A stretch of DNA of 21,365 nt, taken from a virus. Its lineage: Duplodnaviria > Heunggongvirae > Uroviricota > Caudoviricetes. Position numbers and translations under genes: made by a program. Below are positions 15,520 through 19,307 of this stretch, piece by piece. The stretch's first letter is position 1. Every line of letters starts with the position of its first letter. The stretch lies in the IMG/VR virus record IMGVR_UViG_2574180227_000016; one strand, 5' to 3'. The notes beneath the pieces were generated by a model. The model was given only the letters and a program-made list of their open reading frames with translations, was not told where the DNA came from and made no database searches.

Positions 15520-15674
15520 AGCATCCTCACGATAATATCCGGGTAGGCGCGATCACTTTCGTCTACTCCGTTACAAAGCGAGGCTGGGTATTTCCCGGCC
15601 TTTCTGTTATCCGAAATCCGCTGAAAGCACAGCGGCTGGCTGAGGAGATAAATAATAAACGGGAGAGTGTATGA
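15516..15674 (+). CDS. small protein coupled to exo (orf60a-like position)
   Basis: Manual translation [52 protein letters not shown] (52 aa). ATGA overlap with the exo stop and ATGA overlap with the next gene. Confidence 0.4.
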
Positions 15675-16423
15675 TTCATTTTCACGGTGGTCCAATAACT
15701 CCCGATACCTGTGCGTTGAAAGCCTGGAAAGGCAGACACGCATTCATCAGTTTTGCTAATCCAGCTCAGATTGATCTGGCTTCCGAAGTCACCCAATCAT
15801 TTGCTCTTGATAATGGTGCATTCACATTCTGGACAAAAAACAAGGCCATAGACTGGAATGAATATTACAGATTTGTTGAACGCTGGGGTAATCACCCTCG
15901 TTTCTCATTCGCAGTTATCCCGGATGTTATCGGCGGAACCAGTGAAGAGAATGACGCCCTGATTGCGGCATGGCCTCACGGTAAATTTATTGGTGCTCCG
16001 GTGTGGCACATGAACGAACCAGATGAGCGATTTATTCGTCTGTGCCATGAGTTTCCCCGCGTCTGCATCGGCTCGATGGGGGAATACGATGCAAAACGAC
16101 CGAGAGCGTGTCGGGCTAAACTACGCGATCTTATACGTCATGTTGTAGATCAGTACGGCTACCCAATCACCAAGATTCATGGGTTACGGATGTTAAATAA
16201 AGACATTTTTACTCATGTACCGCTTTCGTCTGCAGACAGCACGAACGTCGCAAGAAATATAGGCATCGACAAATCCTGGGTAGGTTCGCCATATGCTCCC
16301 GCAAGTAAAGAAACCCGTACGCAAGTTCTTGTGGAACGCATTGAATCATTCAACAGTGCCAGTTCACTTAATTACAACGCTGAACGGGACGTCTTTACCC
16401 CTCAACTGGCATTCGAAGTGTGA
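15671..16423 (+). CDS. TGT-fold / DpdA-like protein (putative nucleic-acid guanine transglycosylase); function tentative
   Basis: 250 aa. Motifs FALDNGAFTFW, VIPDVIGG and HGLRM...SSADSTNVARN resemble the catalytic Asp blocks of queuine tRNA-ribosyltransferase. There is no C-terminal zinc motif, as in phage DpdA-type proteins. Confidence 0.5.
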   Translation: MIHFHGGPITPDTCALKAWKGRHAFISFANPAQIDLASEVTQSFALDNGAFTFWTKNKAIDWNEYYRFVERWGNHPRFSFAVIPDVIGGTSEENDALIAAWPHGKFIGAPVWHMNEPDERFIRLCHEFPRVCIGSMGEYDAKRPRACRAKLRDLIRHVVDQYGYPITKIHGLRMLNKDIFTHVPLSSADSTNVARNIGIDKSWVGSPYAPASKETRTQVLVERIESFNSASSLNYNAERDVFTPQLAFEV

Positions 16424-16430
16424 GGCCAAT

Positions 16431-16646
16431 ATGACAATAGAACATAATAACGCCCTTCGCAGCATTGCCCGTCAGGCTAATTCTGAAATCAAAAAAGCCA
16501 GACAGCAGTTTCCGGATAAAAACGTCGATGACATTTGCCGTAGCGTACTGAAGAAGCACCGCGAAACGGTAACGCTGATGGGATTCACACCGACTCACTT
16601 AAGTCTGGCAATCGGTATGTTAAACGGCGTCTTTAAGGAACGGTGA
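16431..16646 (+). CDS. small hypothetical protein (71 aa), exo-xis region
   Basis: MTIEHNNALRSIARQANSEIKKARQQFPDKNVDDICRSVLKKHRETVTLMGF... Start at the internal ATG with GAGG upstream. Confidence 0.5.
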   Translation: MTIEHNNALRSIARQANSEIKKARQQFPDKNVDDICRSVLKKHRETVTLMGFTPTHLSLAIGMLNGVFKER

Positions 16647-16744
16647 ACATGAAAAGCAAAATCATCAGGGAGCTACAGGCTCCTTTTTTATTATTCGCAT
16701 TCACCCTCAAGCGTATTAACCAACAATTCAGGGATTAATGGAAG

Positions 16745-16966
16745 ATGGCAGACCTCATTGATTCAGCATCAGAAATTGAAGAATTACAGCGCAACACAGC
16801 AATAAAAATGCGCCGCCTGAACCACCAGGCTATATCTGCCACTCATTGTTGTGAGTGTGGCGATCCCATAGATGAGCGAAGACGCCTGGCCGTTCAGGGT
16901 TGTCGGACTTGTGCAAGTTGCCAGGAGGATCTGGAGCTTATCAGTAAACAGAGAGGTTCGAAGTGA
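16745..16966 (+). CDS. TraR/DksA-family C4 zinc-finger protein (lambda Orf73-like)
   Basis: 73 aa with two Cys pairs (CCECG and CRTCASC), the DksA/TraR zinc-finger arrangement, at the usual exo-xis location. Confidence 0.6.
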   Translation: MADLIDSASEIEELQRNTAIKMRRLNHQAISATHCCECGDPIDERRRLAVQGCRTCASCQEDLELISKQRGSK

Positions 16967-17748
16967 GCGAAATTAACTATCAGGAACTGCGTGAAAAGGC
17001 AGAGAAAGCAACTAAAGGAAGCTACATCGTAGGGCATACATCTGTTAACCAGCACGGCAATTTAACAGGAGTTTTTGTTTGTCAAAAATGGAAAGGAGAA
17101 CCCGGTGGCGTGATTGCCGAATGTCATGTTAACTGCCTGATTGAATCAGATGCTCAGGCTTATGCAAACGCTGAATTTATAGCAGATGCTAACCCAGCTA
17201 CCGTACTGGCGCTACTGGATGAACGGGAAAGAAACCAGCAATACATCAAACGCCGCGACCAGGAGAACGAGGATATTGCGCTTACGGTTGGGAAGCTGAG
17301 AGTTGAGCTTGAGGAGACAAAATCAAAACTCAACGAGCAGCGTGAGTATTACGAAGGTGTTATCTCGGATGGGAGTAAGCGTATTGCTGAACTGGAGAAA
17401 ATCGCCACTGACTATGCACTGAAATTTCAGAAAGCCCAGGACGCATTAAAGTACGCTGTTTTGCTGCGCAAATCAGGGCAGGAAGCACGGGAAATAAAAC
17501 CAGCCAAAGGCGAAGTTCTTGTCGTTGTATCTGGTTTTACTGGTTGCGGAAAAAGCGCCATCGCCGGGGAAATAGAAATCGCGATGAAGTCTATTGGTGT
17601 ACCGGTTAAGTGGACTAATGGCGATGCGGAAAAGCGCATGACAGGAGCTGACTGGCTGACAGCGATTGAGATGTACAAACCAACAGTGCGCATCGTGGAA
17701 GTTAATGTGCCACGCGCCGCAGGCATTCGCATCAAAGGAGGTGCGTAA
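16963..17748 (+). CDS. ea22: Ea22-like mosaic protein
   Basis: GTG start with GAGAGG RBS, overlapping the upstream stop. Central block LLDERERNQQYIKRRDQENEDIALTVGKLRVELE...NEQREYYEGVISDGSKRIAELE matches the conserved Ea22 core. N- and C-terminal domains differ from lambda. Confidence 0.65.
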   Translation: MSEINYQELREKAEKATKGSYIVGHTSVNQHGNLTGVFVCQKWKGEPGGVIAECHVNCLIESDAQAYANAEFIADANPATVLALLDERERNQQYIKRRDQENEDIALTVGKLRVELEETKSKLNEQREYYEGVISDGSKRIAELEKIATDYALKFQKAQDALKYAVLLRKSGQEAREIKPAKGEVLVVVSGFTGCGKSAIAGEIEIAMKSIGVPVKWTNGDAEKRMTGADWLTAIEMYKPTVRIVEVNVPRAAGIRIKGGA

Positions 17749-17924
17749 TGCGTGTCGCGTTTATCGGTTTATTACCATACCCGACTCGTTTTTGGGCTTC
17801 TGCGCTAATTGCAAAGCCGCATGTACTGATGGCTGACAACATCATCCCGGCACCAAAGCGCCGCCATACCGGTATTGCGGCTGCACGACGCGAAGTAAAG
17901 AAACGCAGGAGAGCAAAACGATGA
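17748..17924 (+). CDS. small basic protein (58 aa)
   Basis: AGGAGG RBS 6 nt upstream; TAATG overlap with the ea22 stop. Manual translation MRVAFIGLLPYPTRFWASALIAKPHVLMADNIIPAPKRRHTGIAAARREVKKRRRAKR. Confidence 0.35.
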   Translation: MRVAFIGLLPYPTRFWASALIAKPHVLMADNIIPAPKRRHTGIAAARREVKKRRRAKR

Positions 17925-18103
17925 AAAACCGTAAGGCAAAAATTCTGTTAGCTCGCAGAAACGGTGTTGGGGTCTGGCGCTGGTTGAGGATTAGTAACAG
18001 ACGAGTGAGGTTGACGGGGTGTTGCGGGGTGATGGGGCACAGCTGTTGCAAAAAGCCCAGCGCGTCACAGAACAGGCGGAAGAAAGGGTACGCAGTAAGA
18101 TGA
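17921..18103 (+). CDS. small basic protein, first of a tandem paralogous pair
   Basis: MKNRKAKILLARRNGVGVWRWLRISNRRVRL... ATGA overlaps on both sides. Confidence 0.35.
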   Translation: MKNRKAKILLARRNGVGVWRWLRISNRRVRLTGCCGVMGHSCCKKPSASQNRRKKGYAVR

Positions 18104-18291
18104 AAAACCGTAAAGCAAAGATGCTTATTTCCCGTGTATACAGACGTTGCTATCCCAGCCAGTGGTTGAGAGTTAGCAATCGCCGTGTGGTGTTGTACTT
18201 ATATTCTGGAATTGCCAGAGAGGGAATCAAAGATAAGCGCAGCGCGGCGCAAAACCGCTGGAAAAAACACTTGCGCACTAAAGGAGCCTGA
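18100..18291 (+). CDS. small basic protein, second of the tandem pair
   Basis: MKNRKAKMLISRVYRRCYPSQWLRVSNRRVVL... shares the start and the WLR-SNRRV-L block with the preceding ORF. Confidence 0.35.
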   Translation: MKNRKAKMLISRVYRRCYPSQWLRVSNRRVVLYLYSGIAREGIKDKRSAAQNRWKKHLRTKGA

Positions 18292-18292
18292 T

Positions 18293-18502
18293 ATGTCTAT
18301 TGCCGCAAGTTACACCATGCATCTCTATTGTGACTGCCGCCAGTGTACGGAAGGTGTATATCCAGTGCCAGACTTCGGTGAGTATATCGGTACGTCATGG
18401 TCTGGTTGTGCAAAAGAGGACCGTAAAGACGGGTGGCGAATAAGCAAAGACAAAACACGTGCTTTTGCGCCAGGGCATAAAGTTTTAAGGATTAACACAT
18501 GA
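18293..18502 (+). CDS. hypothetical Cys-rich small protein (69 aa)
   Basis: AAGGAG RBS. MSIAASYTMHLYCDCRQCTEGVYPVPDFGEY... Confidence 0.45.
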   Translation: MSIAASYTMHLYCDCRQCTEGVYPVPDFGEYIGTSWSGCAKEDRKDGWRISKDKTRAFAPGHKVLRINT

Positions 18503-18918
18503 CCACTATTACCAAAGAACGTATTGAATTGTTCATTAAAAATCCGCTTGAAAACGGGCTTACTCGTGGCGAACAAATGGAACTGGCACGAATTGCACTG
18601 GCATCACTGGAACGCGAACTGATTCGCCACGAGCATGCCAAATGGTCTGACTCCACATTTGGCTGCGTTGGCCCCATTGGTCCACTGAAACACCTCTCAA
18701 AAGAGGCTCTGGAAGCCGCAGCCGAACCAGACGATCTCAGCGAGTGGGCTGATATGCATTTCCTGTTGTGGGATGCACAGCGCCGTTCTGGCATCAGCGA
18801 TGCTGAAATTACCGCTGCTATGGAAGATAAATTGAAGATCAACATGGAGCGCCAGTGGCCTGAACCAAAAGATGGTGAGCCTCGCTTGCACATTAAAGAA
18901 CCGGCAACTCTCCGGTAA
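18499..18918 (+). CDS. DUF550-like / MazG-like nucleotide pyrophosphohydrolase-type protein (tentative)
   Basis: 139 aa. The acidic helix KEALEAAAEPDDLSEWADMHFLLWD resembles the MazG-type E/D metal-binding motif. ATGA overlap upstream. Confidence 0.4.
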   Translation: MTTITKERIELFIKNPLENGLTRGEQMELARIALASLERELIRHEHAKWSDSTFGCVGPIGPLKHLSKEALEAAAEPDDLSEWADMHFLLWDAQRRSGISDAEITAAMEDKLKINMERQWPEPKDGEPRLHIKEPATLR

Positions 18919-18971: not shown

Positions 18972-19307
18972 ATGGCAGATGCGCTTGGTGTATTCGGTGA
19001 TGCAGCAGTACAGAAAGTTCTGGATAACCTGTCACAGCAAAAACTTGTTCACAGAGATGTGCTGCCGTTCTCGCTTCCGGTAACTCCGGATGGTTGGATA
19101 AGCTGTAGTGAGCGAATGCCGAACGATAAACAGTATGTTTGGTGTTGGGGTAAGTCTTACGGCTGGACTGAGTGCGATACCTTCGAAGGGTATTACGATT
19201 GTTCGAGAAACAAATGGTGGGCAGTTACTGACAATGGGGAAGAACCGGCATCGAAAGTAACCCACTGGATGCCGCTGCCAGAACCGCCGCAGGAGGTGAA
19301 TCAATGA
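18972..19307 (+). CDS. DUF551-like protein
   Basis: 111 aa with the GWISCSERMPND...THWMPLPEPP pattern typical of DUF551 prophage proteins. GGAG RBS. Confidence 0.5.
   Translation: MADALGVFGDAAVQKVLDNLSQQKLVHRDVLPFSLPVTPDGWISCSERMPNDKQYVWCWGKSYGWTECDTFEGYYDCSRNKWWAVTDNGEEPASKVTHWMPLPEPPQEVNQ

Follow-up and report, generated by a model that had tools for sequence, protein, structure and literature searches.

The gene at positions 16963..17748 (+ strand) of a viral DNA stretch raises two questions: whether both ends of a lambda-type Ea22 protein have been replaced around a conserved core, and what its C-terminal portion, which is unlike that of phage lambda, might do. The stretch, termed the window here, comprises 21,365 nucleotides (nt) of IMG/VR record IMGVR_UViG_2574180227_000016 (Caudoviricetes). 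An earlier note, made from the sequence alone, had read the gene product as an Ea22 protein with a retained coiled-coil core and exchanged N- and C-terminal domains. Our best explanation overall, to which we assign a probability of roughly 0.7, is that this is a block-assembled member of the Ead/Ea22 family in which an oligomeric scaffold would present a C-terminal effector, and that the protein would serve as a non-essential, pro-lysogenic modulator whose effector is a putative phosphate-ligand module.

The open reading frame (ORF) list gives this ea22-family gene a GTG start, a TAA stop and a product of 261 amino acids (aa), and both peptide strings quoted in the earlier note fall within it. 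Family membership was assigned with Pfam PF13935 (Ead_Ea22; IPR025153), which scores 138.7 bits (cutoff, 27; E=2.4e-40) and aligns residues 2-145 with positions 1-139 of its 139. Among the PHROGs, the protein matches phrog_250 (E=5.5e-76); this group and phrog_11761, to which these proteins belong, are both annotated as function unknown. The identical 261-aa protein is public on 358 contigs and 426 collection blocks under the name "ead/Ea22-like family protein." Some part of the gene is present in 2685 of the 5426 complete Escherichia coli genomes in RefSeq, and the whole gene is unbroken in 2 of them. The ratio of non-synonymous to synonymous substitution rates (dN/dS), computed per block by the Nei-Gojobori method, is 0.09-0.11 for the N-terminal half (versus phiV10, 1717, and P32), 0.15 for the core (versus lambda), and 0.03-0.15 for the C-terminal module (versus phiV10 and D6). 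The ORF is under purifying selection in every block (0.03-0.15), and a spurious or decayed reading frame is ruled out by these low ratios together with the wide spread of the exact protein. The gene is an intact, expressed-looking, common and already annotated member of the Ead/Ea22 family.

For comparison, lambda ea22 (182 aa) was obtained from NC_001416, and the similarity of the two proteins is far above chance level. BLASTP aligns just residues 51-145, with an identical core (residues ∼80-145) matching lambda residues 36-101 (E=2e-40), and to this extent the statement that only the central block matches lambda holds; it does not extend to the two ends of the protein, where residues 1-16 (MSEINYQELREKAEKA here versus MSEINSQALREAAEQA in lambda) and the last eight common residues of the tail (AGIRIKGG here, AGIRIKGE in lambda) are also homologous. 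The first of these segments, block 1 (residues 1-16; 16963..17011, +), is an N-terminal peptide common to the compared Ea22 genes, including lambda, to which it has 96.5% nt identity; residues I4, Q7, L9, R10, and E11 are invariant in an alignment of seven sequences. Block 2 (residues 17-80; 17012..17202, +) occurs in the Ea22 genes of Shiga toxin (Stx) phages and in phiV10, has 93-96% nt identity to 1717, P32, and phiV10, and lies inside the PF13935 match, whereas lambda has a different stretch of ∼20 aa in this region and no DNA homology between 17012 and 17202. The N-terminal region as a whole has 93-95% nt identity with the Stx-phage Ea22 genes and phiV10.

The N-terminal 80 residues are thus not a replaced domain, as had been proposed, but begin like lambda and continue in the form found in Stx phages. 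Because the same full Pfam model spans residues 2-101 of lambda and residues 2-145 here, lambda represents a short outlier form, and the apparent N-terminal replacement is an artefact of its use as the reference. Published accounts describe residues 17-80 as a 63-aa segment absent from lambda (Goddard 2024, PMC10834534), and the amino-terminal portion of Ea22 as one that "appears to be truncated in lambda" (Dydecka 2020, PMC7093339). This variable segment contains C40, C54, H55, and C58; its counterpart in ST64B sb32 (residues ∼20-55) has a CxxC...C...C pattern, and some relatives of the C-terminal module have zinc-ribbon-like Lar domains. Residues 17-80 may therefore form a small metal-binding domain.

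Beyond the N-terminal region, three further blocks were delineated. Block 3 (residues 81-145; 17203..17396, +) is the conserved coiled-coil core, with 91.8% nt identity to lambda. Block 4 (residues 146-174; 17397..17483, +) is an extra helical segment, KIATDYALKFQKAQDALKYAVLLRKSGQE, which corresponds to a 29-aa gap in phiV10 gp48; this 87-nt segment was found in just 23 of the 5426 E. coli genomes and resembles ST64B Sb32 (67.7% over 31 aa), and both observations rule out that it is unique to this locus. Block 5 (residues 181-253; 17503..17721, +) is a mobile C-terminal module of ∼75 aa with a Walker-A-like motif, present in 405 of the same genomes (∼7%), with 112 of 441 matching places located on plasmids. 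In agreement with the first reading, the C-terminal part does differ from lambda, in which residues 146-252 have no counterpart.

Domain shuffling around a conserved coiled-coil core is borne out by the protein alignment and by abrupt breakpoints in DNA homology to lambda, 1717, P32, phiV10, D6, ST64B, and the copy in E. coli S19-651; the blocks also differ widely in how often they occur among the 5426 E. coli genomes. Lambda is homologous at 16500-17011 (96.5%, including the first 16 ea22 codons) and 17203-17396 (91.8%), with no homology beyond; phage 1717, which carries the published C-terminal variant V3, is homologous up to 17400; P32 is homologous up to 17312 and resumes from 17713 (tail and downstream); and phiV10 is homologous at 16962-17396 and 17481-18518. 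D6 matches at 17194-17312 (86.6%), 17466-17740, and further downstream pieces, ST64B matches at 17377-17444, and S19-651 matches at exactly 16962-17740 (99.6%) with unrelated flanks. Breakpoints consequently fall at 17011/17203 (lambda), 17312 (P32, D6), 17396-17400 (lambda, 1717, phiV10), 17481 (phiV10), and 17740 (S19-651). The S19-651 copy (locus L010, 9001-9783) and phiV10 gp48 (locus L002, 3001-3699) are located in a nin-like region 3′ of the replication genes, rather than in the exo-xis region. Given this placement, and since homology to S19-651 ends at the gene ends, the whole gene moves as a cassette and its inner blocks are exchanged, in both cases by recombination at conserved junctions between phages. 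The mosaic organization of Ea22 has already been published (Dydecka 2020, PMC7093339; Goddard 2024, PMC10834534; PMC8614690).

One such junction closes the gene. The tail junction, GCAGGCATTCGCATCAAAGGAGGTGCGTAATG (17719..17750, +), encodes AGIRIKGGA (the conserved tail, residues 253-261) followed by the stop (GCAGGCATTCGCATCAAAGGAGGTGCGTAA). Its last three nt are the start codon of the next ORF (ATG, 17748-17750), and this codon overlaps the TAA; a strong Shine-Dalgarno sequence, AAGGAGGT, is located within it at 17735-17742. Lambda, 1717, S19-651, phiV10, and P32 have the same tail DNA despite unrelated C-terminal domains: GC(T/A)GGCATTCGCATCAAAGGAG closes lambda ea22, 1717 gp07, and the S19-651 copy, the phiV10 gp48 tail has the form ...AAAGGAGGT, and that of P32 Ea22 is one base off (AAAAGAGGT). 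The gene that follows is of 171 aa in 1717 and S19-651, and is a small ORF of 51-58 aa here, in phiV10, and in P32. That the modules of lambdoid phages meet at short, conserved boundary sequences is a well-established notion.

A scan of IMG/VR for the 19-nt tail, with GGAG as part of the search pattern, identified at least 120 loci (L018-L137), with 113 usable sites. Among the matches listed, an ATG or GTG placed exactly 6-7 nt after GGAG is the start of an ORF of 40 aa or more at 103 of the 113 sites, the downstream ORFs represent roughly 20 kinds of gene, with at least 26 different hexamers at their N-termini, and the upstream side comprises at least 18 sequence classes, at least 10 of which are unrelated C-terminal domains. 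GGAG is imposed by the search pattern, but neither the start-codon spacing nor the upstream and downstream diversity is. A MEIKPE/MQIKPE-type ORF follows the tail at 34 or more sites, and in the four such sites inspected (L103, L106, L108, L125) a "ghost" ea22 was observed, i.e., a 27-aa ORF that runs from the first eight ea22 codons (VSEISYQA) straight into the tail AGIRIKGE, the whole interior being deleted. The C-terminal +GE (K-G-E) motif of these proteins, whose "significance ... is unknown" in the literature (Dydecka 2020, PMC7093339), is on this evidence the translation of AAAGGAG, which would act as both the ribosome-binding site of whichever gene follows and a recombination junction; this is a simple explanation, under which +GE need not be a motif at the protein level.

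The central coiled coil of the Ea22 family is predicted to be present. Single-sequence AlphaFold2 (AF2) modeling of the whole protein yields one continuous helix across residues 78-170, with a predicted local distance difference test score (pLDDT) above 89 for residues 91-150, and is confident for this long helix alone. A hydrophobic periodicity of 3.5 residues occurs at 1.7-3.8 times background across residues 78-168, with its peak at 120-168 (block 4 included), and 63-65% of the a/d positions are hydrophobic. Block 4 is likely to lengthen the coil, because it falls inside the predicted helix and in the stretch where the heptad signal peaks. Ea22 tetramers are experimentally known just for lambda and P27 (PMC10834534).

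The C-terminal module has a wide distribution. In an exhaustive search, residues 181-253 matched 437 clusters (50% identity level, E≤1e-3) in proteins of 110-623 aa, and module placement and motifs were counted in 147 listed representatives of these clusters. In 127 of these the module is located at the C-terminus; 13 others have it at the N-terminus and 7 in an internal position. A near-stand-alone form (P0304, 83 aa) consists almost entirely of the module, which also occurs near the N-terminus of Burkholderia phage BcepC6B gp37 and internally in large proteins of Ralstonia/Burkholderia jumbo phages. Among 60 distant, full-length representatives scanned with Pfam, the fusion partners were Ead_Ea22 (7), Lar (2), and DUF4406 (1), and most partner regions are unannotated; the module itself is not covered by any family model in Pfam or NCBIfam.

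The most conserved feature of the module is a Walker-A-like motif, GFTGCGKS (residues 191-198; 17533..17556, +), which follows a hydrophobic strand (VLVVVSGFTGCGKS, residues 186-198) as in the consensus GxxxxGK[ST]. The pattern G..G.GKS is retained in 144 of the 147 representatives, and in an alignment of 28 sequences the invariant positions include G191, T193, G194, G196, K197, and S198, and later V242, I244, and E246 of the VRIVE strand. The latter, a hydrophobic run ending in Glu, is a Walker B-like candidate that may or may not lie beside the P-loop (phosphate-binding loop). Models of the P-loop clan give sub-threshold matches in all 31 module sequences examined: AAA_16 in 31 of 31 (best E=3.4e-4) and APS_kinase in 27 of 31 (best E=4.9e-5). 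A sequence search of the Protein Data Bank (PDB) chains with the protein gave no match at E≤0.1, and a profile search of the PDB gave weak matches to nucleotide-binding domains of ATP-binding cassette (ABC) transporters, UvrA, gluconate kinase, and the engineered minimal P-loop proteins 6c2u and 9jix. Some relatives carry automatic names such as "ATP-binding protein," "adenylylsulfate kinase-like," and "Mrp family ATPase."

Together, these features suggest how such a protein could act. By analogy with the tetramers of lambda and P27 Ea22, the long helix would oligomerize the protein and thereby present several copies of the C-terminal effector. By analogy with lambda, 24B, and P27, the protein would be a dispensable factor that acts soon after infection or induction and tilts the outcome toward lysogeny; the experiments on the pro-lysogenic phenotype and on tetramers come from lambda, 24B, 933W, and P27 (PMC7093339, PMC10834534). 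The conserved motif suggests that the module may bind a phosphate-bearing ligand (a nucleotide or nucleic acid) through its P-loop, although it would be too small for a complete nucleoside triphosphatase (NTPase) unless the oligomer completes the fold.

Several observations weigh against this proposal. Structure prediction of the terminal domains, which had been put forward as a check, was informative for one end: single-sequence AF2 gives pLDDT below 50 at both termini, while a model of the module (residues 172-261) based on a multiple sequence alignment (MSA) of relatives with at least 53% identity reaches a pLDDT of 80.6 (>90 for 40 residues) and a predicted template modeling score (pTM) of 0.69. 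This monomer model comprises three helices and has no beta-strands by DSSP, so that the three-layer alpha-beta-alpha fold with a central parallel sheet is not seen in it. Foldseek with the module model found no P-loop NTPase or significant neighbor (best E=4.7 in PDB and 0.85 in BFVD). For the window protein itself, the APS_kinase score is 14-16 bits, below the cutoff of 21.1, the NCBIfam kinase and ATPase matches are far under their cutoffs, and the P-loop matches cover just ∼40 residues (strand, Walker A, and helix). The protein ends in IKGGA, where relatives end in KGE or KGGE, and thus does not have the C-terminal +GE (K/R-G-E) motif, although the junction is present in the DNA. Finally, a pro-lysogenic role has been shown just for lambda and a few Stx phages, which carry other C-terminal domains. 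The best BFVD match is an 82-aa viral protein with 33% identity, a possible homolog. Strand-like hydrophobic runs (VLVVV and VRIVEV) occur in the module sequence despite the strandless model, and a sheet completed between subunits may reconcile the motif with that model. In view of the strandless model, the lack of a Foldseek neighbor, and a length of ∼75 aa that is about half that of the smallest similar families, the module is classified here as a Walker-A-bearing module with fold unassigned, and not as a P-loop NTPase.

The same observations leave some room for an alternative in which the module is a protein-protein interaction or dimerization domain, and the Walker-A-like motif a structural relic without nucleotide binding. 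The small size of the module is in keeping with this, at about half of the smallest weakly matched P-loop families (the APS_kinase model has 152 positions and the gluconate kinase chain 175 aa), as are the strandless monomer model and the lack of a significant P-loop NTPase fold match; moreover, the C-terminal domain of lambda Ea22 is a dimerizing alpha-beta domain with no known ligand, for which the same role has been proposed. What makes this reading improbable, although still one to be reckoned with, is the retention of G..G.GKS in nearly all of the representatives, down to ∼53% identity and also in Burkholderia/Ralstonia phages. The hydrophobic strand with its invariant Glu (VRIVE) is retained as well, and conservation of a glycine-rich loop together with Lys-Ser is difficult to explain on structural grounds alone. 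A bolder extension of the phosphate-ligand proposal is that the module is a natural, autonomously folding Walker-A domain of ∼75 residues, which would bind nucleotide or nucleic-acid phosphate only once the Ea22 coil clusters its copies; in that case phages would be using it as a portable, ligand-sensing effector grafted onto many scaffolds, and the natural counterpart of engineered minimal P-loop prototypes. We put this forward only tentatively, and regard it as doubtful.

The genomic setting bears on a further alternative, in which the protein or at least its C-terminal module, instead of taking part in the lysis-lysogeny decision, serves in phage-host or phage-phage conflict (counter-defense, restriction evasion, or exclusion). 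The gene is located in the exo-xis region on the pL side of a lambdoid prophage that is inserted next to mlrA in E. coli, with the gene order gam, bet, exo, a gene resembling tRNA-guanine transglycosylase (TGT), orf73/TraR, ea22, small ORFs, a MazZ-like pyrophosphohydrolase gene, a DUF551 gene, xis, and int; Pfam domains of these neighbors include RecT, YqaJ exonuclease, TraR zinc finger, MazZ-like, DUF551, excisionase, and integrase. The position of ea22 between the TGT-like gene and the gene for a MazZ-type dATP/dGTP pyrophosphohydrolase is suggestive of a conflict role, as is its high mosaicism, which is typical of conflict genes. In addition, 2 of the 60 scanned representatives combine the module with Lar restriction-alleviation domains in one protein, a neighboring gene in Yersinia phage fHe-Yen8-01 is annotated as an anti-restriction protein, and distant relatives adjoin DNA methyltransferases. 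Yet these neighborhoods are circumstantial, given that such regions collect all kinds of accessory genes; PADLOC gives no match to the module and just weak, coiled-coil-type matches to the full protein, and the published Ea22 phenotypes are pro-lysogenic and not anti-defense. A conflict role is therefore considered unlikely.

It is very improbable that this locus holds a unique chimera, formed when a lambda-type Ea22 newly exchanged both of its ends: the unbroken gene is indeed confined to two of the complete E. coli genomes in RefSeq, but the exact protein on 358 contigs (426 collection blocks), the family-typical N-terminus, and the collinearity of phiV10 gp48 refute this reading. Full-length collinearity with a single known Ea22 variant, which would have been inconsistent with the first reading, is essentially what these data reveal, since the identical protein is already annotated as ead/Ea22-like and phiV10 gp48 is collinear with the window protein apart from one 29-aa gap.

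Directly upstream of ea22, in the exo-xis early-left region, is orf73 (16745..16966, +; named as in the lambda exo-xis region), which encodes a TraR/DksA-type zinc finger protein of 73 aa (Pfam zf-dskA_traR, E=7.7e-9) and whose TGA stop overlaps the ea22 GTG start by four nt (GTGA); annotations of Stx2 phage 1717 and phage P32 show the identical overlap. The same gene context, with the integrase adjoining mlrA, was observed in all six displayed public assemblies that encode the exact protein. The mlrA gene corresponds to yehV, the site used by Stx1 phages in O157:H7. Downstream, a 58-aa ORF (17748..17924, +) belongs to phrog_13831 (E=1e-40), is a homolog of phiV10 p49, is called as a gene in public assemblies, and is probably translationally coupled to ea22.

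Other neighbors illustrate the fluidity of the region. The TGT-like ORF (250 aa; 15671-16423, +), between exo and orf73, matches phrog_887, "queuine tRNA-ribosyltransferase" (E=2e-99), and has no Pfam match; it presumably resembles the DpdA-type DNA transglycosylases of phages, which make 7-deazaguanine DNA modifications. A sequence search for a related solved structure found none. Relatives of ∼251 aa are located directly 3′ of the Ea22 tail junction in at least four IMG/VR loci. The gene for the MazZ-type enzyme (PF04447, E=7e-42; 18499-18918, +) is followed by a separate DUF551 gene (18972-19307, +), and L012, a related assembly, encodes a single 269-aa product with both domains. The published Ea22 variant V2 has DUF551 as its C-terminal domain, so that the same modules occur both fused and free in this region.

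Since the literature already presents Ea22 as a conserved coiled coil whose ends are swapped, the mosaic structure of this protein changes little. The published catalog of C-terminal domains (lambda, V1, V2, and V3) is incomplete, as at least 10 unrelated classes end in the same tail. The Walker-A class provides a testable handle on the biochemical activity of Ea22 (nucleotide binding, K197), and what is known of the family is modestly extended by this module and by the account of the tail as a Shine-Dalgarno sequence.

Relative to the catalog, the C-terminal domain of the window protein is neither V3 (homology to 1717 stops at 17400) nor 933W-type (homology to P32 stops at 17312), and Pfam detects no DUF551 match that would assign it to V2; the V1 prototype was compared just via the 933W-type P32 gene. 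It represents a class not covered in the Ea22 literature, in which our searches found nothing linking Ea22 to Walker A, the P-loop, or phiV10 gp48, although the proteins themselves are already in databases and in PHROGs. Lambda Ea22 (NP_040612, 182 aa) shares with it the Pfam family, the GTG start, the first 16 residues, the core, and the tail AGIRIKG. It differs in having ∼20 unrelated residues in place of segment 17-80, in lacking the 29-aa helical extension, and in a C-terminal domain (residues 102-182, solved by nuclear magnetic resonance; Goddard 2024) that is unrelated in sequence to the module; in addition, ATC stands after the lambda tail where the others have ATG. Phage 1717 gp07 (315 aa) has 94.6% nt identity from upstream through 17400 (residues 1-146), with the same overlap, tail, and exo-xis position, but beyond residue ∼146 it has an unrelated C-terminal region of ∼160 aa instead of the helical extension and module; carriers of this V3 form include P27, 1717, and 2851 (Goddard 2024, PMC10834534).

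Phage phiV10 gp48 (YP_512303, 232 aa) aligns collinearly from end to end (identical residues at 224 of 231 aligned positions; 98.9% identity in the module), and the downstream genes are also common to both, as far as window position 18518; gp48 lacks the 29-aa segment, and its gene follows the replication genes rather than lying in the exo-xis region. Phage D6 orf100 has the C-terminal module in common but differs in its N-terminal half, and its tail is longer. Outside the family, the P-loop kinases of the adenosine 5′-phosphosulfate (APS) kinase and gluconate kinase type, the engineered "phosphate-loop protein" 6c2u, and the designed ATPase 9jix likewise have a hydrophobic strand, GxxGxGKS, and a helix, and they are the top profile matches of the module, although all stay below threshold; the natural P-loop kinases comprise 150-200 aa with lid and substrate domains, as compared with the ∼75 aa of the module described here.

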